A stretch of 41,827 nucleotides of DNA from an uncultured Acidimicrobiaceae bacterium (GTDB lineage Bacteria > Actinomycetota > Acidimicrobiia > Acidimicrobiales > UBA10347). The stretch is from positions 32,176-74,002 of the forward strand of contig CAZEMU010000003.1 in assembly GCA_964513315.1 (NCBI GenBank). The letters are read 5' to 3'. Positions 3,131 to 11,648 of the stretch are shown one piece after another. Both the position numbers and the translations under genes were made by a program. Positions within the stretch are counted from its first letter, which is position 1; the number at the start of each line of letters is the position of its first letter. The notes under the pieces were generated by a model. It had not been told where the DNA came from. It searched no databases and worked only from the letters and a program-made list of their open reading frames with translations.

Positions 3131-4723
3131 CTACGCGAACACGAAGCCGGAGTAACCGGCTTCGGCGCACTCGGTGAGTGCGGCGCGGTAGGCGTCGCTA
3201 CTCGGCAGATTGAGTAGCTGCCGGCGCTTGCCAGGGATGTTGGCGCCCATGTACCAACTGTCGGCTTTGCCGAACAGCGTCATCTCGGCCCAGCCAGCGA
3301 GTACCTCGGACCATTGCTCTGCGGCCGCGTGCTCGGTATCGAAGCGGGTCAGTTCGTTGGCACGGAGATGCTCAAGTAGGTCCACGGTCCATTCGCCCTG
3401 GATCTCGGCGCACACCGGACCGTTGCAGAACGACGCCGCACTTTGCGGGCCGTACAGCATGATCATGTTCGGGAACCCGGGAGCCGCCATGCCGAGGTGG
3501 GTGTCGACCCCATCGGCCCACGCATCGCCGATCCACAGCCCGCCGGTGCCTCGGAAGTCCATGCGGGTGAAGCCGCCAGTGTTGGCGTCGAAGCCGGTCG
3601 CCAATACGAGCACGTCGAGGTCGATATGCCCGGACTCGGTCTGCACCCCCTTCGGCGTGATCATGACGAGCGGGTCCCGCTTGAGGTCGACGAGCGACAC
3701 GTCGTCACGATCGAACAGGTCGTAGAAGTTCTGCTCGAGGGACGGTCGTTTCGTGCCGAACGGATACGGCGGATCGGTCGGCGCCAAACTCTCGTGCAGC
3801 GATTCGTCTGTAATCCGGGACCGGGTCTTATCCCGCCAGAAATCATACGCCAGCCGGTTCGCCTCTTCGTTGGCCAGCGTGTCCTTGAACCCGCCGACCC
3901 AGAAGTGGAAGCCACCCTTCGCCCACCGGTCCTCGTACACCGCGATGCGTTCCTCGTCACTGACATCGAGTGCCGATCGGTTGTCTCGGATCATGTCGTG
4001 GAAGCTGCCGGGCGGCGCGTTGCGAGTGCGAAACACCTGCTCGTAATCGAGCTTGGCCTCGGCCTGCCGCTCGGGCGTCAGCTGCCGCTGCTCCATCGGC
4101 AACGCCATGTTCGGCGTCCGCTGGAAGATCGTCAGATGCGCAGCAACTCCGGCGGCTTCTTGCGCCACCTGTACGCCGCTCGCTCCCGTGCCAACGATGC
4201 CGACACGCTTCCCCTGGAGCGGTAGCCCCTCGAGCGGCCACGCGGCCGTGTGGTGGGCAGCTCCCGCGAAATCGTGGAGGCCCGGCAGGTCCGGCACATA
4301 CGGCGCGGACCCAAACCCCGTGCACATGACCAACCACCGACAGCCGTAGCTACGGCCATCGTCGGTTGCGAGGTTCCACTCGTGCGCATCGTCGTTGAAA
4401 TGCGCCCGGGCAATGCGAGTGTTCAGATCGATGTCGGGGGAGAGGTCCCACACTGCGTCGACGTGATCGAAGTAAGCAACGAGCTCTTCGCGGCCCGGGA
4501 AGCGTTCTTTCCAGTTCCAGTCCTCCCAGATCTCGCGCATCGAGTACTCGTAGTTCGGGATGTGGCAGTCGACCCGAGCACCCGGATACCGGTTGTGATG
4601 CCACACGCCGCCGAGCCCGCTGCCGGCTTCGACGAGCCGAACCGCCCAACCCTCTTCGCGCAGCCGCTTCAGCTGGTAGAGCCCGTTGAAGCCCGCTCCC
4701 ACGATCACGACGTCGTACCGCAT
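3131..4723 (-). CDS. Baeyer-Villiger monooxygenase (cyclohexanone monooxygenase family)
   Basis: GAGFNG, GGVWHHNRYPG, BVMO fingerprint FAGAAHHTAAWP, second Rossmann motif GTGASG, ATGF, SWYMGANIPGK. Confidence 0.93.
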   Translation of the reverse strand: MRYDVVIVGAGFNGLYQLKRLREEGWAVRLVEAGSGLGGVWHHNRYPGARVDCHIPNYEYSMREIWEDWNWKERFPGREELVAYFDHVDAVWDLSPDIDLNTRIARAHFNDDAHEWNLATDDGRSYGCRWLVMCTGFGSAPYVPDLPGLHDFAGAAHHTAAWPLEGLPLQGKRVGIVGTGASGVQVAQEAAGVAAHLTIFQRTPNMALPMEQRQLTPERQAEAKLDYEQVFRTRNAPPGSFHDMIRDNRSALDVSDEERIAVYEDRWAKGGFHFWVGGFKDTLANEEANRLAYDFWRDKTRSRITDESLHESLAPTDPPYPFGTKRPSLEQNFYDLFDRDDVSLVDLKRDPLVMITPKGVQTESGHIDLDVLVLATGFDANTGGFTRMDFRGTGGLWIGDAWADGVDTHLGMAAPGFPNMIMLYGPQSAASFCNGPVCAEIQGEWTVDLLEHLRANELTRFDTEHAAAEQWSEVLAGWAEMTLFGKADSWYMGANIPGKRRQLLNLPSSDAYRAALTECAEAGYSGFVFA

Positions 4724-4836
4724 GCCAGCCTCGCACTGCATGTAGGCAGGGTCGCAGCTCGACGCCTCGCAGCGAAAATCGGGCTTCTACTAGTGTTGCC
4801 CCTGCACACATCTCTTTCTGATGAGCTGAGGGGAAC

Positions 4837-6477
4837 ATGACGGCACTGGCAATCGATTCGGGCGCAACGGACGTACCGCTGATCGAGATGACAATTGGTG
4901 ATCTGCTTGCCCAAACGGTCGCCGAACATGGCGATCGAGAAGCGCTCATCGTCACCCACCAAGACATCCGGTTGAGCTGGAACGAGTTCGGTGAGATCGT
5001 CGACCGGGTCGCCAAAGGCCTGATGGCGTACGGCATCGACAAGGGCGACCGCGTCGGCATGTGGAGCCCGAACTACGCCGAATGGGTTTTCGTCCAGTTC
5101 GCCACCGCCAAGATCGGCGCCATCCAGGTCAACGTGAACCCGGCCTACCGCACGAGCGAACTCGAGTACGCCATCAACCAGTCGGGCATGAAAGTGCTCG
5201 TCACGAAGACCGAGTACCTGACCTCGATGTATCGAGACATGGTCGAGTCGGTCACCCCGAACTGCCCCGACTTCGAACGCGCCGTCTACTTCGACACCGA
5301 CGACTGGCAGGCGCTGCTCGACGCCGGCAACGCCATCAGCGACGAAGACCTCGCCGCCCGCAACGCCAGCTGCGAACCCGGCGACGCGATCAACATCCAG
5401 TACACGAGCGGCACGACCGGCTACCCCAAGGGCGCCACGCTCAGCCACATGGCGCTCATCAACGACGCCAAGATGGTCGGCGAGATGCAGGCGTTCAGTG
5501 CGGACGATCGCCTGTGCATCCCCGTGCCCTTCTACCACTGCTTCGGCATGGTCATGGGCAACCTGGCGTGCTGCGTGTTCGGTATGCCGATGGTGATTCC
5601 GTCGCCGACGTTCAACCCTGGCGAGGTCCTGCAGACCGTGTCCGACGAGCAGTGCACCGTGCTCTACGGCGTGCCGACCATGTTCATCGCTGAGCTCGGC
5701 CATGCCGATCTGGAGTCGTTCGACCTGTCGCAACTGCGCACCGGCGTGATGGCTGGCTCGCCGTGCCCGATCGAAGTCATGCGCGATGTCATCGACAAGA
5801 TGAACATGTCCGAAGTCACCATCGCCTACGGCCAGACCGAAACGTCGCCGGTGTCGACCCAGACCCGCACGACCGACTCGGTCGAGAAGCGAGTCACCAC
5901 CGTCGGCCAGGTGCTTCCCCACGTTGAAGCCAAGATCGTCGACCCGGAAACAGGCGACACGGTCGCCCGTGGCCAAGAAGGCGAGTACTGCACCCGCGGC
6001 TTCCACGTGATGCTCGGTTACTGGAACGATCCCGAGAAGACCGACGCTGCGATCGACAACGAAGGCTGGATGCACTCGGGTGACCTGGCGACGATGGACG
6101 ACGAAGGCTTCGTCAACATTGTCGGGCGCATCAAGGACATGATCATCCGCGGCGGCGAGAACGTGTACCCGCGAGAGATCGAAGAGTTCCTCTACACGCA
6201 CCCCAAGGTCGCGGACGCCCAAGTCATCGGCGTGCCCGACGAGAAGTACGGCGAAGAGATCATGGCCTGGGTCCAGCTCGCCGAGGGCGAAGACTGCACC
6301 GAGGACGAACTCAAAGAGTTCTGCCGCGGCAAGATCGCCCACTTCAAGGTCCCTCGCTACATCGCATTCGTGAACGAGTTCCCGATGACGGTCACTGGCA
6401 AGGTCCGCAAGATCGAGATGCGCGAGAAGTCGATCGCCGACCTCGGCCTCGAGTCCCACATCAGCGAAACCGCCTGA
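4837..6477 (+). CDS. AMP-binding fatty acyl-CoA synthetase (ACSF2/YngI-like)
   Basis: [41 protein letters not shown]. Confidence 0.93.
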
Positions 6478-6489
6478 GGAGGCGCACCC

Positions 6490-7722
6490 GTGCAGCGAAT
6501 CGTCGCCGATGTTCTGATCCCTGGCCGGGGCGAACCGATCGAGAACGGCACGGTGATCCTTGGCGCCGGCGGCAAGCGGGGCGTGATCACCTATGCCGGC
6601 CCGACAGCCGACGCGCCCGCACCGACCAACGACGAAACGGTCACCGAAGTGCCCGTCGTGATGCCGGGTCTGTGGGACTGCCACAGCCACTTCGTCGGCA
6701 TGCCCCAGCCGAACATCGAAACGATCGCGCAGACCGAACCGGTGACCGCAGCGGCCCGGGCGACCGATGATCTGCGGGCCGTCCTCAATGGCGGCATCAC
6801 CAGCACCCGCGAGGTCGGAGGCATGGGCCTGCACCTTGGTGACGCCATCGACGAAGGGCGCATCCCCGGACCACACATTCACGCAGCCGGACGCATCTTG
6901 TCGACCACCGGCGGCCACGGCGACCTGCACGGGTTTCCGATCGAGGCGGTTCACCAGTTGCTGTGCAACCACCACTTCTCGATCTTGTGCGACGGTGTGC
7001 CCGAGGTCCTCAAGGCCGTGCGCCTGAACCTGCGTTCCAACGCCAAGCTGATCAAGGTCTGTGCCAGCGGCGGTGTGATGTCGGAAGTCGATCACCCGAT
7101 GCATCAGCAGTTCTCCGACGAGGAGTTGGCCGCCATCGTGCAAGAAGCGGCCCGCGCCGAGCGGATCGTTGCCGCTCACTGTCACGGCAAGGCCGGGATC
7201 ATGGCCGCCATCCGCGCCGGCTGCCACACGATCGAGCACGGCAGCTTCTTGGACGAAGAAGGCGCCGAGGCGATGGCCGCCCAGGGGACGATGTTCGTGC
7301 CGACCCGCTACGTCGTCGATGCGCTGCTTGGCTCGCCCGAGAACCTGCCGGCCTATGTCTATGAGAAGGGCCAGATGGTTGCCGGCGCCCACGAACAGGC
7401 GATGAAGATCGCCATCGCCAAGGGCGTCAAGATTGCGGCTGGCTGCGACATCTTCGTGTCCGGCCAGTTCTACGGCACCGGCAGCCTCGAGGTCATGCAC
7501 CTCATCAATGCCGGGCTGACCGACCTCGAAGCAATCGAAGCTGCGACGGCCAATGGCCCCGAGACGCTCGGCCCACAAGCGCCGATGAGCGGCCAGCTCC
7601 ACCAGGGTTACGACGCCGACGTCATTGCGATGGATACGAATCCGCTCGATGATCGCTCGGTGTGGGGTGATCCCGATCGCGTCACACACGTGTGGAAGTC
7701 GGCGGCACTGATCAAGGGGTAG
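6490..7722 (+). CDS. Metal-dependent amidohydrolase (prolidase-like subgroup)
   Basis: MPGLWDCHSH, IKVCASGG, AHCHG, IEHG, AGCD metal-ligand motifs. Confidence 0.9.
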   Translation: MQRIVADVLIPGRGEPIENGTVILGAGGKRGVITYAGPTADAPAPTNDETVTEVPVVMPGLWDCHSHFVGMPQPNIETIAQTEPVTAAARATDDLRAVLNGGITSTREVGGMGLHLGDAIDEGRIPGPHIHAAGRILSTTGGHGDLHGFPIEAVHQLLCNHHFSILCDGVPEVLKAVRLNLRSNAKLIKVCASGGVMSEVDHPMHQQFSDEELAAIVQEAARAERIVAAHCHGKAGIMAAIRAGCHTIEHGSFLDEEGAEAMAAQGTMFVPTRYVVDALLGSPENLPAYVYEKGQMVAGAHEQAMKIAIAKGVKIAAGCDIFVSGQFYGTGSLEVMHLINAGLTDLEAIEAATANGPETLGPQAPMSGQLHQGYDADVIAMDTNPLDDRSVWGDPDRVTHVWKSAALIKG

Positions 7723-7775
7723 CCCCACGCTGCGATCAGCGTGAGCAGGCGCGATTGGTCCCGGGGCGGCTTGGT

Positions 7776-9092
7776 TCATCGGACGGTCTCGCCCGTTGGT
7801 GTCGTGATGGTGATGGTGCCGTCGGAGCCGCGGCAGACGAGGTAACCGGCTTCTTTGCGCCAGTTGTGCGTGGGGCAGGCGGGTGCTCCGTTCATTTGTG
7901 TCGTCGGCCCGCCCCGGGCGGCGGGTCTCAAGTGGTCGATGTGGCACTGGGTCACCGGCCGGTGACAGCCGGGCCAGTAGCACTCGTCGGTCTGGAGCTC
8001 GACGCCGAGGCGTGTGAGCCCGGTGAAGAAGCGCTGCTCGACCGAGAGATCAATGGTGATCCCGGCGGCGTCTTGGACGACCCGGCGGAAGCTTCCCGTG
8101 ACGAGCTCAGCGATCGCTGAGGGCGCATGGATCGGGTGGCCATCGAGATCGGTCACGCCGTAGTCATCGGGGGAGAGGCGTTGCAGAGGAAGGCCGTTCC
8201 ATCGACGGAAGAGCTCTTCGGCCGTGTCGCCCTGCCACACGATGTTGTGGACGCGCTTCACCCGCACAGATGAGGCTGTGTTTGCGGCCGCATCTTCGGC
8301 CATCTGGCAGAGCGCGTCGGCCCGGCGCTGCGCATCGGTGCGCTCCAGGACTTCCAGGGTGGTTGCGTCGCCATGCACAGCCTGGGCGTTGTCCCAGTCG
8401 AGCTTGAATTCGGCGTCGACATAGGCGGCGAAGACTTCGTTGAATCGCGACCCTGCAGCGGAGCCGAGCTGGGCCCGCAGATGCCATGCGGTGGAGAAGT
8501 GGTCCTGCGACAGACTCGCGTCGCGCGACTCGTGCGTTGGGTCGGCTGCAGGAGATGAGCCGTCATCGTCGGCGAGCTCAACCCATCGAGCGATCTTGCG
8601 TTCGAACCGCTTCCAGCTGAGCTTGCGAGCTTGGGCGAGGAACCACACCTGGTCATCAATGAAGCGGTCGCGGACTCGCCGGTTCGCGTAGACCTTGCCC
8701 AGCAGTACCGCCTGGTCGACGCCGAGTTCTCCCGCTGCCCAGCTGCGAGCGATGTGGTCCGCCCGATCTCCGTGGACCATGCGCCTCACCCGATCCATCC
8801 GGAACGCGTCGGCGCCCGAAAGACCAGCCAAATGACCGACCATCGTTCGGGCGGACGAGTGACCCTGGTCCACGAAGATTCGAGAGGCGTCGATCGCCTG
8901 CATCGTGTCCACCACGGTGACGGCGGCCAGCCGCCGCAGTCGCTCAGCAATCTGGATCGCTCGATCGGCCGAGTCGACCCCAGTGATCAGCGGGGCGCCA
9001 GTCTCAGTCGCCTCGCTCAGCGCCAACAACGCGGCCTGATGCGCAACGTTGGCAGTATCGAAACCGATTGACGTTTCGCTTGGCATGGACAT
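7776..9092 (-). CDS. DUF222 domain / HNH endonuclease (REP13E12-like family)
   Basis: QRRADAL motif; C-terminal CYWPGC...CHIDH...GGPT...NGAPACPTHN HNH/zinc module; GAGGTG RBS before ATG 9092. Confidence 0.88.
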   Translation of the reverse strand: MSMPSETSIGFDTANVAHQAALLALSEATETGAPLITGVDSADRAIQIAERLRRLAAVTVVDTMQAIDASRIFVDQGHSSARTMVGHLAGLSGADAFRMDRVRRMVHGDRADHIARSWAAGELGVDQAVLLGKVYANRRVRDRFIDDQVWFLAQARKLSWKRFERKIARWVELADDDGSSPAADPTHESRDASLSQDHFSTAWHLRAQLGSAAGSRFNEVFAAYVDAEFKLDWDNAQAVHGDATTLEVLERTDAQRRADALCQMAEDAAANTASSVRVKRVHNIVWQGDTAEELFRRWNGLPLQRLSPDDYGVTDLDGHPIHAPSAIAELVTGSFRRVVQDAAGITIDLSVEQRFFTGLTRLGVELQTDECYWPGCHRPVTQCHIDHLRPAARGGPTTQMNGAPACPTHNWRKEAGYLVCRGSDGTITITTPTGETVR

Positions 9093-9343: not shown

Positions 9344-9982
9344 GTGTCCAGCGCCTCGCCCAAGATCGTGCTCTTGAATGGCGCTCCTCGATCGGGCAAG
9401 TCGTCAATCGCTGACTGTCTCATCGACAGCCACGTGGGTTGGGTACGCGACGGTGTCGACGCAGACATGGCAGCAACGCCAGCGTCGCTGAGGCCTGGAA
9501 TCGGGTTGCGGCCAGGCGGTGAGCGTCCGGACCTCGAAGAAACGGTGCACAACCGATACCGCGCCCTGTTCGAGCGCCTCGTGCAGCAATTGAAGTCCGG
9601 GAACTCGGTCGTGGTCGACGTGGGGTTGCACCATCATTACGCCTCAGCGCTGCATCCGCTTTGGGACGCAGCAGAGCAACTTCCGCTCGACGCAACTTGG
9701 CTTGTCGGTGTGCACTGTGACCTCGAGGCGATCCTTGAACGGCGCCGCCGGTCACCATCCGAGCTGTATGAGTCCGGCGAGGTGGGACTGGTGCCAGCCC
9801 CAATTGTGCGTTGGCAAGCAGCCGTTCACGATCCGGGGATCTACGACCTGCGTGTCGACACGTCGACCGAGTCGGCGACAGCGTGCGCAGCCACAATCCT
9901 CACCCACATCAATCGAGCCGAGCCGTTGGCGATGCGAACCATCTCCTCTCAGCCCAGGCCGGAGTCGTTACGGGCTGAGTGA
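9344..9982 (+). CDS. Chloramphenicol phosphotransferase (CPT)-like P-loop kinase
   Basis: LLNGAPRSGKSS Walker A; VVVD, VGVHC, WQAAVH...YDLRVDTS...CA are typical of the CPT family. Confidence 0.8.
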   Translation: MSSASPKIVLLNGAPRSGKSSIADCLIDSHVGWVRDGVDADMAATPASLRPGIGLRPGGERPDLEETVHNRYRALFERLVQQLKSGNSVVVDVGLHHHYASALHPLWDAAEQLPLDATWLVGVHCDLEAILERRRRSPSELYESGEVGLVPAPIVRWQAAVHDPGIYDLRVDTSTESATACAATILTHINRAEPLAMRTISSQPRPESLRAE

Positions 9983-10675
9983 CGCTCGCAGGTCTGCGTA
10001 GGCGGCTTGGCCAGCCTCGGTCTGGATCCAACTGAGATAGTCAGCTCGACCGCGCTCGCTGAAGAACGGGTTCGAGAAGATGTCGGCCCACGCAGCGACA
10101 GGCTTCAAGAAGCCTTCCATCTCGCTTTCGAAGCCGGACCAGTTGCGGGCATGTTCTTCCGACCGGAAGAGGTTCATGCTCGCTCAACGGAACGGCCTGC
10201 TGGCCGCATCACCCCCGACCATCTGGCTCGTGTATCCAACCACGGTGTCGGGCTCGACGAGGATGATCTCGTCGTCACGCAACTCGACCACCATCGGCTC
10301 ACTACAACACAAGCATGGCGCTTCGATTCGAACGGCCTGACCAGGGACGAGCCAGCGAACTGCCAGCGACTCGAATCCTCATTGACCGAACCAGCCGTGG
10401 CGCTCACCGATCTGGATGCGGTACTGCGTCGGCTGCACGTTGAACGGAGGGAACGACGCAATCCAGTCCGTCCCCGGATGCATCCAGCCGGGCGTCACGG
10501 CACACAGCTGATGCACGATCTGCTTCGCCCGTTCGACCTCGATCCCCAACATTGGCGCCAGCTCCGCATAGTGCGGCGCCTGCGTCGTTTCGACGATCGA
10601 GGTCATGATCGCGGCGTACGCCCGATCGAGTTCGACGATCGGGATCTCCTCGGGGGAAGCGGTATCGGCGGCCAT
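9968..10675 (-). CDS. MerB (organomercury lyase)-like protein, putative double selenoprotein (Sec99, Sec164), 235 aa
   Basis: ORF-track pieces 10379..10690 and 9968..10177 share one frame. In-frame TGA at 10379-10381 (WFGQ-U-GFE) and 10184-10186 (RPFR-U-ASMNLFRS) align to the MerB catalytic Cys motifs. N-terminal HTH-like segment and PPFNVQPTQYRI are MerB-like. Hairpins follow both TGAs. Confidence 0.8.
10145..10183 (-). promoter_or_regulatory. Putative SECIS element after second UGA
   Basis: GCG-A-GCAUG/CAUGC-C-CGC lower stem, UCUUCC/GGAAGA upper stem, GGUC apical loop starting 19 nt after the UGA. Confidence 0.7.
10345..10378 (-). promoter_or_regulatory. Putative SECIS element after first UGA
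   Basis: GGAU/GUCC and GAGUC/GGCUC pairings enclose a G-containing apical region (UGGCAG) directly after the UGA. Confidence 0.5.
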
Positions 10676-10735
10676 GCACCACGATGACACATGTCGCTCG
10701 GGCGGTCACAGGTAGCGCAATTGGCGCCGGACCAC

Positions 10736-10949
10736 TAGCCTGTGCAACGCACATTCAGTTGACGAAGTGGTCGTGAGAGCGTCCCACCCCGTCGCCGCTC
10801 GAGGCGCACCGGGTCCCAGTGCAGTTCCGTCGCCGGGGAATACCCCGTTCGCGATGGTGTTGCGGTGGTTCCTTGCCTGCCAACAAGCGCAGTGCACTGC
10901 AAGAACTACCCATCGAAATGAGGAGATCATCCTTCGTGAGTGATCCGCA
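10736..10949 (+). promoter_or_regulatory. Putative promoter (-10 TAGCCT) and about 200-nt leader of infC-rpmI-rplT, possible L20-type autoregulatory RNA
   Basis: Long non-coding stretch with pairing potential (AAGTGG...CCCAC, GCAGTGCACTGC) ahead of an operon that is commonly L20-autoregulated. The function is an inference. Confidence 0.3.
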
Positions 10950-11648
10950 ATAGCACCGCCACGTGATTCACGAGATTCCGGCCCCCGGGTGAACGAACAA
11001 ATCCGGGCCCGCGAGGTCCGACTTGTCGGCGCCGACGGGGAACAGGTCGGAATCGTGCCGCTGCCAGAAGCCCTTCAGCTCGCCCAGCGAGCTGGTCTTG
11101 ACTTGGTCGAAGTCGCCGATAAGGCGAAGCCGCCCGTGTGCAAGATCATGGACCATGGCAAAGCGGTCTACGAGGCGAAACAGCGTGACAAGGCCTCTCG
11201 CAAGAAGGCCACGACCGTGCAGGTCAAGGAAATGAAGTACCGGCCGAAAATCGGCAAGGGTGACTTCGAGACCAAGACCCGCAAGGTGAAGCAGTTCCTC
11301 GGTGAAGGCAACCGCGTCAAGGTCACGATCATGTTCCGAGGCCGCGAAATGCAGCATCCGGAACTTGGTCGTCGCATCCTCGACAACATTGCCGAAGAAG
11401 CCGACGACATCTCCAAGGTCGAGGTCTATCCGAAGCTCGATGGTCGCAACATGGTCATGGTCCTGGTTCCCGACAAGGAGAAGCAGGCAGCCTTGGCCGC
11501 CGAGGAAGCAGCAGCCGCTGCAACCTCAAACGCACCAGCCGCAGCAACCCCAGCTCCCGAACCCGAGGCAGAACAGCCAGAGGTCGCCGAGCCGGAGGCA
11601 ACCGAGGCCGAAGCCCCTGCAGCTGCAGAGGTAGAAGCAGCCGAATAG
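10950..11648 (+). CDS. infC: Translation initiation factor IF-3 (probable ATA start; alternative GTG 10989)
   Basis: [36 protein letters not shown]; Ala/Glu/Pro-rich C-terminal tail. Confidence 0.97.

Follow-up and report, generated by a model that had tools for sequence, protein, structure and literature searches.

The stretch of DNA analysed here, a window of 41,827 nucleotides (nt) from contig CAZEMU010000003.1 of an uncultured Acidimicrobiaceae bacterium (assembly GCA_964513315.1), raises the question of whether a minus-strand gene interrupted by two in-frame TGA codons still encodes a complete enzyme. A first-pass annotation of this window had recognized in it a lyase related to MerB whose two catalytic cysteines were both encoded as UGA, and had put it forward as a candidate double selenoprotein. 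Following up this proposal by comparative genomics, profile searches, structure prediction and RNA analysis, we conclude, with a probability of roughly 0.87, that the gene encodes a 235-amino-acid (aa) MerB relative in which both metal-binding cysteines are replaced by UGA-encoded selenocysteine (Sec), its chemistry being extrapolated from that of MerB. The results presented below demonstrate or strongly support that this is a single gene with two Sec codons, each followed by a downstream hairpin, in a genome that makes selenoproteins. The features of the gene are collected in Table 1.

The minus-strand frame that opens with the ATG at 10675 and closes with the TAA at 9970-9968 contains exactly two internal stops, both TGA, namely codon 99 (10381-10379) and codon 164 (10186-10184), with 64 sense codons in between. 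The 103-aa (10379..10690) and 69-aa (9968..10177) open reading frames (ORFs) are pieces of this same frame, as had been proposed from the letters alone, and the positions and the read-through peptide match the sequence; so does the spacing of the two UGA codons, 65 residues against 63 between the equivalent cysteines of MerB. When both TGAs are read through, the protein matches the Pfam MerB family (PF03243) over residues 80-194 with 56.8 bits (2.8e-15, cut-off 27), a match that spans both TGAs, and the corresponding match on raw DNA (40.1 bits, with 2 TGAs inside) is the sole PF03243 match in the genome.

The predicted structure and the profile comparisons point to the same fold. An AlphaFold2 (AF2) model, obtained with an alignment of 18 sequences from genomic loci, reached a mean predicted local distance difference test score (pLDDT) of 89.5 and a predicted template modelling score (pTM) of 0.85, and in this model the whole MerB fold is kept, the N-terminal helical domain included. 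All 11 PDB matches with E<=0.001 were MerB or MerB2, the next match having an E-value of 0.28, and the full-length family profile matched MerB2 (5c17) at 2.5e-19 and MerB (3f2g) at 4.1e-12. In the profile-to-PDB alignments, column 99 corresponds to C96, E102 to D99, C121 to C117 and column 164 to C159, and the earlier alignment of U99, E102 and U164 with C96, D99 and C159 is thereby upheld; the columns of the nucleophile pair, Cys96 and Cys159, are both filled, by Sec (UGA) in place of Cys. On the other hand, the curated NCBIfam MerB models (NF033555, PRK13239) were far below their cut-offs (27.5 vs 193 bits and 24.5 vs 200 bits), and the NCBIfam model of SaoL, a MerB-like selenoprotein discussed below (NF040728), gave 28.4 bits for the window protein vs a cut-off of 140. 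No further NCBIfam model was matched by the 18 family members, for which the best SaoL E-value was 2.7e-14. With scores far under the cut-offs of both the MerB and the SaoL models, the protein has a MerB fold yet is a member of neither named family.

Relatives of the protein are numerous in databases, where they are mostly cut short. A protein search returned 264 relatives at E<=0.001; among the 120 listed, 117 are 153-183 aa long and 3 are 219-226 aa long. Among 17 of the 120 listed that were aligned, the 14 short ones stop at ...RPFR, directly before column 164. Public entries, these 153-183-aa truncations, are called 'organomercurial lyase' or 'hypothetical protein', the former being the name given by RefSeq and UniRef to 163-aa forms. 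The 3 long homologs, which are Joint Genome Institute (JGI) calls on contigs of ~1 kb, carry W at column 164, and 2 of them carry W at column 99 too, a residue that would fit TGA translated under code 4. Within the same order, 50 of 301 genomes match the read-through protein, the full-length matches having 2 TGAs in two genomes of the same genus and 1 TGA in others. With the family alignment as query, species-representative genomes gave at least 599 matching stretches; at least 574 of these proved to be relatives, and the best 80 were retained.

The codons at the two columns were tabulated over 109 loci besides the window (L017-L125), among which three pairs represent the same genome in both collections. 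The combinations at columns 99/164 were Cys/TGA in 54 loci, TGA/TGA in 40 and Cys/Cys in 14, with 1 partial locus; column 99 is accordingly TGA in 40, a Cys codon in 68 and partial in 1, and for column 164 the counts are 95 TGA and 14 TGC. No residue other than Cys or Sec was found at either column over the tabulated loci, so that the Cys/TGA alternation suggested earlier as a check is present in the homologs at both sites. An acidic residue stands 3 positions past the first Cys or Sec in 108 of the 109 loci, the remaining one being partial. Because the Pfam match spans both TGAs and the same two columns are TGA in 40 of 109 other loci, the double TGA is beyond chance.

These figures bear directly on a different explanation, namely that the gene is a pseudogene with two chance nonsense mutations, or that TGA is reassigned in an altered genetic code. 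Gene callers do take the TGAs as stops, and the public proteins of 153-183 aa are the truncations expected from it; however, a decayed gene is hard to reconcile with the occurrence of TGA at the same two codons in 40 other loci, and purifying selection is seen on all segments of the gene. Pairwise ratios of nonsynonymous to synonymous substitution (dN/dS), estimated by the NG86 method over 16 pairs, the dS of the middle segment being saturated in one of them, were 0.04-0.23 for codons 16-98, 0.03-0.36 for codons 100-163 and 0.07-0.24 for codons 165-233, and remained at 0.40 or less when the hairpin regions described below were removed; the proposed comparison downstream of each TGA therefore gives values of 0.03-0.40 in all segments. 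Both TGAs are also kept in contigs from other seawater/marine samples, and in the sample runs examined (X3 and X4 share a study with the possible source samples, X5 and X7 belong to a second one, and X5 has no coverage of TGA-2) the strain variants beside the TGAs are synonymous (CGT->AGA at codon 163 and CAA->CAG at codon 98).

The machinery for Sec incorporation, which the first-pass annotation had singled out as a check, is present in full (selA, selB, selC and selD) in the window genome (275 contigs, 87% complete). The selA (384 bits) and selB (266 bits) genes lie adjacent on contig C46, tRNA-Sec was found both by Rfam (64.9 bits) and by ARAGORN (tRNA-SeC, anticodon tca), and selD (370 bits) has one in-frame TGA, which corresponds to Sec in a G-A-G-U-G-C-K motif. 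The selD of this genome (L010:1531-1533, G000 contig C4) is thus itself a selenoprotein gene; in its selenocysteine insertion sequence (SECIS), a 7-bp stem carries a G-U-U loop, whose first base is 33 nt past the UGA. SelB contacts G and U in the apical loop, and since the selD loop reads G-U-U, it resembles the loops of the two hairpins found in the window. Among the families searched in the genome, in-frame TGAs occur only in selD and in the MerB-like gene; because 23 other gene matches have no internal stop, and several homologs of the MerB-like gene end in TGA, the codon is not a general sense codon. Across the order, selA is above cut-off in 198 of 301 genomes and in 17 of 17 genomes with a TGA-bearing MerB-like match, whereas among genomes with the Cys form two (G059, G066) have no selA match and two (G047, G116) reach no more than E ~1e-4; as kinship among the genomes makes them non-independent, no p-value is attached to this co-occurrence.

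With TGA ending genes normally in this genome, 23 other gene matches lacking internal stops, and both TGAs conserved elsewhere next to synonymous changes, a pseudogene or an altered code is exceedingly unlikely. The earlier argument for Sec recoding over two nonsense mutations is supported by the Sec machinery, the Cys/TGA alternation and the dN/dS past each TGA.

The recoding signal behind the second UGA, SECIS-2, is conspicuous. It consists of an upper stem (nt 17-22 paired with 27-32 in the window, 16-33 in most relatives), a 3-4-nt bulge and a lower stem, and its apical loop, GGUC (10161-10164), begins 19 nt past the UGA. The 45 nt from UGA-2 fold at -18.2 kcal/mol, with a z-score of -4.45 and 0 of 200 shuffles reaching this energy. 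At 22 of the 45 columns all 96 TGA-bearing genes agree, the upper helix is paired in 97.9% of cases, and the whole structure is paired in 82.3% of cells vs 37-46% when the partners are slid. SECIS-2 is present in 96 of 96 TGA genes, including 6 of 6 of a distant subfamily (B, described below), and absent from 14 of 14 Cys genes, and subfamilies A and B share an identical SECIS-2 core despite ~28% protein identity. The codons 169-173 (L-F-R-S-E) use one codon each in 97-100% of 88 sequences, with an entropy of ~0 bits against a synonymous background averaging 1.40 bits over 61 other conserved degenerate columns; since these codons are frozen at synonymous sites, selection acts on the RNA and not on the protein alone. 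In the lower stem, the pair of nt 7 with 39 is GC in 26 sequences, AU in 11, GU in 10 and unpaired in 40.

In the window, one and the same set of nucleotides (10154-10170 on the minus strand, codons 169-174) encodes the peptide L-F-R-S-E-E and forms the upper stem-loop of SECIS-2. This peptide and its exact codons are common to subfamilies A and B, whereas the Cys subfamily has F-V-L-D/N-A-E at that place, and from the sequences the RNA signal seems to constrain the protein at LFRSEE.

The candidate hairpin behind the first UGA, SECIS-1, is less evident. Its 6-bp stem (nt 15-20 with 26-31 from the U of the UGA) pairs GCUGGC with GCUGGC, including two G-U pairs, its 5-nt loop AGUUC starts 17 nt past the UGA with G-U at nt 22-23, and its lower stem (nt 10-13 with 33-36) is short and imperfect. 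The evidence in favour of it comes from the comparison of TGA and Cys forms at column 99: all six pairs are found in 40 of 41 TGA forms vs 25 of 48 Cys forms, nt 22-23 of the loop read GU in 41 of 41 vs 7 of 48, and paired cells amount to 91.6% vs 76.0%. Codon 104 is CTG in 98% of TGA forms vs 59% of Cys forms and codon 107 is CGC in 100% vs 69%, while the third positions of the two loop codons are free (entropies of 1.44 and 1.92 bits); where Arg107 is replaced in TGA forms, by Cys or Gly, this occurs via NGC codons and the paired bases are kept. On this comparative basis SECIS-1 is probably a real element. The first-pass annotation had placed both TGAs before hairpins, which holds well for TGA-2, a clear outlier at a z-score of -4.45, and only weakly for TGA-1, whose hairpin becomes visible solely by cross-genome comparison.

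Several observations weigh against the reading of the gene as a two-Sec selenoprotein. The SECIS-1 region of the window folds no better than its shuffles (z +0.69 for 60 nt, z -0.32 for 40 nt), and the peptide ALAVRW alone would encode much of the SECIS-1 stem. Covariation lies within the range of shuffles for both hairpins, the observed score being reached by 354 of 500 shuffles for SECIS-1 and by 79 of 500 for SECIS-2, in which 5 of 7 upper pairs never vary; as the stems hardly vary, covariation is uninformative in either direction, and the case for the hairpins rests on conservation and not on compensatory change. A phylogenetic independent-pairs test of SECIS-1 features against TGA had 4-5 pairs only, ~2 of them in the same direction and essentially none in the opposite one (p ~0.5), and so lacked power. 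In the AF2 model, confidence dips at residues 151-160 (mean pLDDT 61), just ahead of Sec164. An Rfam scan of 9900-10750 returned no match to a SECIS family. The same scan gave a match to the aspS RNA at 9944-10015 on the minus strand, over the stop codon of the gene, which was rejected as probably due to chance (20.7 vs 42.5 bits, E 0.73).

The weakness of SECIS-1 by free energy, the lack of covariation in it and the non-significant independent-pairs test are what would be expected if only UGA-2 encoded Sec and UGA-1 terminated translation or leaked inefficiently, the gene then yielding mainly a 98-aa fragment, or being split or decaying. We consider this very unlikely, since column 99 is TGA in 41 of 89 complete genes of the close subfamily, under record titles of five or six phyla, and persists through deep branches; the segment between the TGAs has a dN/dS of 0.25-0.36 among three genus-level genomes and of 0.03-0.36 over 15 computable pairs; the stem codons are frozen specifically in TGA forms; and UGA-1 replaces an essential catalytic Cys, so that a 98-aa product would be without the whole catalytic domain.

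Table 1. Coordinates of the MerB-like gene, its two UGA codons, the associated hairpins and further catalytic columns within the window.
Feature	Position	Strand	Basis
Coding sequence of the 235-aa MerB-fold selenoprotein, UGA = Sec at codons 99 and 164	9968..10675	-	Frame, Pfam MerB, AF2, PDB matches, dN/dS
UGA-1, codon 99, Sec at the MerB Cys96 position	10379..10381	-	Profile alignment to the Cys of 'AWCALD'; TGA/Cys alternation; kept in 4/4 sample runs
UGA-2, codon 164, Sec at the MerB Cys159 position	10184..10186	-	Profile alignment to the Cys of 'qsfCShvhfF' (MerB C160S); kept in the 3 covering runs
SECIS-2, hairpin nt 4-42 after the U of the UGA	10145..10183	-	Folding z-score, invariant columns, frozen codons
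Candidate SECIS-1	10346..10372	-	Stem and GU loop fixed in TGA forms, relaxed in Cys forms
Codon 102, Glu at the MerB Asp99 (proton donor) position	10370..10372	-	Profile alignments; Glu in subfamilies A and C, Asp in B
Codon 121, Cys at the MerB Cys117 position	10313..10315	-	Invariant in 18/18 sequences; aligned to the Cys of 'SSHCAATG'

The relatives fall into three subfamilies. Subfamily A comprises 90 genes, the one in the window included, whose products share 49-79% identity with the window protein; all 90 have TGA at column 164, and column 99 is TGA in 41, Cys in 48 and cut off in 1. The members of subfamily B (6 loci and G016) are ~28% identical, with C-A-W-D at site 1 and TGA at site 2, and around column 164 subfamily A has the motif R-U-A(S/G) and subfamily B the motif S/T-U-S. 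Subfamily C (14 loci) has Cys at both sites and occurs also in genomes without selA. The sibling clades of the window form, that is, the Cys99/Sec164 proteins (e.g., Ca. Poriferisodalis), subfamily B (CAWD...U-STMNLFRSEEH) and the all-Cys subfamily C (CA[SM]E...MCDSMNF), show full-length homology and the same invariant columns, and A and B have their SECIS-2 core in common; the window protein differs in belonging to the subset with TGA at column 99 too, and subfamily C in having neither TGA nor hairpin. A maximum-likelihood tree of 92 rows, calculated with columns 99 and 164 removed and with two interrupted or partial loci (L024, L025) left out, places at least 5 Cys-Sec changes at column 99, 4 of them forced by well-supported branches.

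By record title, the hosts of the best 80 of at least 574 relatives are Acidimicrobiia/Acidimicrobiales, Ca. Poriferisodalis, Dehalococcoidia/Chloroflexota, 'Deltaproteobacteria', Ca. Binatia, Ca. Methylomirabilota and one Desulfobacteraceae metagenome-assembled genome, and the habitats recorded are seawater, sponge and soil. The two-Sec form had been described at first as actinobacterial; it is indeed present in the lineage of the window, but record titles place it in Dehalococcoidia, Binatia, Methylomirabilota and 'Deltaproteobacteria' as well. Among the loci examined, the single-Sec form (Cys99/Sec164) is the commoner of the two.

Three peculiarities were met within the family. A match with '2 TGA' in genome G016 was discarded as an artefact, as its first TGA (L135:475-477, G016:C17) is the stop codon of the upstream gene, and the locus is a one-Sec member of subfamily B. 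In the Ca. Poriferisodalis clade (L021:1063-1500 on the minus strand, L022, L024), the frame runs ~145 residues past the usual C-terminus to a TGA, with no Pfam match in this extension, which could be a fused domain, a further read-through or the consequence of a missing stop. One of these loci (L024; G144:C1, ~2417391-2417590) has a ~70-residue acidic low-complexity insertion (E, T, A, Q) just before column 99, which splits the match in two.

As to what the protein may do, a mechanism can be drawn whose chemistry follows that of MerB. Each UGA is most likely recoded by its own SECIS, which starts ~10 nt downstream within the coding sequence and whose apical loop, containing G-U, lies 17 nt past the UGA at site 1 and 19 nt past it at site 2; the SelB and tRNA-Sec of the genome would read these hairpins, with SelA and the Sec-containing SelD supplying Sec. 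The product is predicted to be a cytoplasmic enzyme of MerB fold, in which an organometallic substrate might be gripped by the two selenolates at its soft metal or metalloid atom, and Glu102, in the place of Asp99, might donate the proton that cleaves the carbon-metal bond. The likeness to MerB (EC 4.99.1.2; 3F0P, 3FN8, 1S6L) and MerB2 (5C17) lies in the fold (Foldseek E-values of 3e-10 to 2e-5, query-normalised template modelling scores of 0.44-0.64), in the three conserved Cys columns and in the acidic residue at +3. The differences are an identity of only ~18-20%, the two Sec in place of the catalytic Cys pair, Glu for Asp99, a different C-terminal helical region in the window protein, and the location of the gene outside a mer operon.

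There are also reservations about the function. No mer genes (merA, merR, merT/P) were annotated near the gene in the window, in agreement with the earlier remark that no merR, merA or transporter gene is nearby. In the 87%-complete genome the MerA model had 13 matches, the best with 308 bits vs a 454-bit cut-off; these matches are generic flavoprotein disulfide reductases, none over the cut-off, and were rejected as MerA. Across 90 family loci there was no conserved neighbour beyond close relatives: the largest neighbour cluster had 21 loci, 18 of them from one clade, and an M20 peptidase with a nitroreductase (in the Poriferisodalis clade only) and an ABC ATPase (8 loci) were rejected as functional partners. 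The proton-donor column is Glu, a conservative change from Asp, in the window protein and in all of subfamily A. Finally, the very tight hold that a diselenolate would have on Hg(II) casts doubt on turnover. Given the lack of a mer operon and of a MerA over the cut-off, the substrate may not be mercury, or the metal may be freed otherwise (e.g., by low-molecular-weight thiols or selenols).

The same observations leave room for a real two-Sec protein of MerB fold that is not a carbon-metal lyase, in which Sec99 and Sec164 would form a redox centre (selenenylselenide/diselenol) or would serve in the binding, trafficking or sequestration of a soft metal or of selenium. The absence of a mer operon and of a conserved neighbour, the Glu in place of Asp99 and the probable difficulty of turning over a diselenolate-Hg complex are all compatible with such roles; most bacterial selenoproteins are redox proteins, according to a review (PMC13188914), and the family occurs in genomes that the main text of BSepDB counts among the most selenoprotein-rich, namely UBA1141 and isolate 10f4566d, both with the double TGA (L102, L124). 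However, the acidic residue at +3 in 108 of 109 loci together with the invariant equivalent of Cys117 make up the full catalytic set of MerB, unlike a plain binding site, and the whole fold is kept, including the N-terminal helical domain. A role other than that of a lyase is therefore a possibility that we take seriously while regarding it as unlikely, and a MerB relative with UGA-encoded Sec at both metal-binding positions, with chemistry modelled on that of MerB, is the reading we retain.

The closest described counterpart is SaoL, which a preprint (Haft & Gwadz, bioRxiv 10.1101/2022.07.06.499078) presents as a MerB-like selenoprotein with a CU motif, U being at the Cys159 position, encoded in a nine-gene SAO locus of Clostridioides difficile and other anaerobes. 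The two proteins are alike in their MerB fold, in Sec at the Cys159 position, in database entries that end at the UGA, and in a suspected organometallic substrate that is not necessarily mercury. They differ in that SaoL keeps Cys99, whereas the window protein has Sec there too; in the C-U dipeptide vs R-U-A; in Asp102 vs Glu; in the nine-gene neighbourhood (the ABC transporter SaoABP and others), none of which is found in the window; and in host range, SaoL being reported from anaerobes only and the present family occurring in Acidimicrobiia, Dehalococcoidia, Binatia and others. Two reviews, in their tables, give SaoL as the only MerB-like selenoprotein, and the table of the 2026 review gives it one Sec, in the CU motif. 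The main texts of GOS 2008 and Peng 2016 make no mention of MerB, alkylmercury or lyase, and that of BSepDB none of MerB or lyase. In the literature that could be searched we found no description of a two-Sec or an actinobacterial MerB-like protein, although supplementary family lists could still hold one. What is already known is thus the existence of a MerB-like selenoprotein as such (SaoL), and what appears to be new is a clade of MerB-like selenoproteins that is separate from that of SaoL and much larger.

The surroundings of the gene can be briefly described. The MerB-like gene stands alone, with infC upstream on the other strand (10989-11648) and a chloramphenicol-phosphotransferase-like (CPT-like) kinase gene converging from downstream (9344-9982); other neighbours encode an HNH protein and a PNPOx-like protein. 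The former is a 438-aa ORF on the minus strand (7776-9092), ~0.9 kb from the 3' end of the MerB-like gene, with a weak C-terminal match to HNH endonucleases (22.8 vs 21.4 bits). Farther away, a 1092-aa minus-strand ORF (4705-7983) overlaps the well-supported genes of an AMP-binding enzyme (4837-6477) and an amidohydrolase (6490-7722) on the plus strand, and is most likely a shadow ORF of this high-GC DNA.

Regarding the family as a whole, we tentatively suggest, as a rather doubtful proposal, that this large and so far unannotated group acts, without any mer operon, on methylmercury or a different organometal(loid) as a carbon-metal lyase, its active site being either a diselenol (Sec/Sec) or a selenol-thiol pair (Cys/Sec). 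It is encoded by at least 574 stretches, for the most part from Acidimicrobiia, Dehalococcoidia, Binatia and uncultured lineages related to them, in seawater, sponge, groundwater and soil. If the proposal is true, organometals would be broken down in oxic environments by a route not seen before, and the family would be the first lyase with selenocysteine as both of its catalytic nucleophiles; two selenocysteines at one catalytic centre are rare among proteins, with none listed for the MerB fold. As the database stubs are named 'organomercurial lyase', counts of merB-like genes in marine, sponge and soil metagenomes include truncated selenoproteins. Mercury is held far more tightly by two selenolates than by two thiolates, and because of this the family may extend organometal chemistry to new substrates, or forge a new connection between the cycling of selenium and that of mercury. 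Column 99 has changed repeatedly between Cys and Sec, which offers a natural experiment on the catalytic contribution of Sec, and the overlap of LFRSEE with SECIS-2 provides a clean case of a protein motif and an RNA signal in one stretch of nucleotides.

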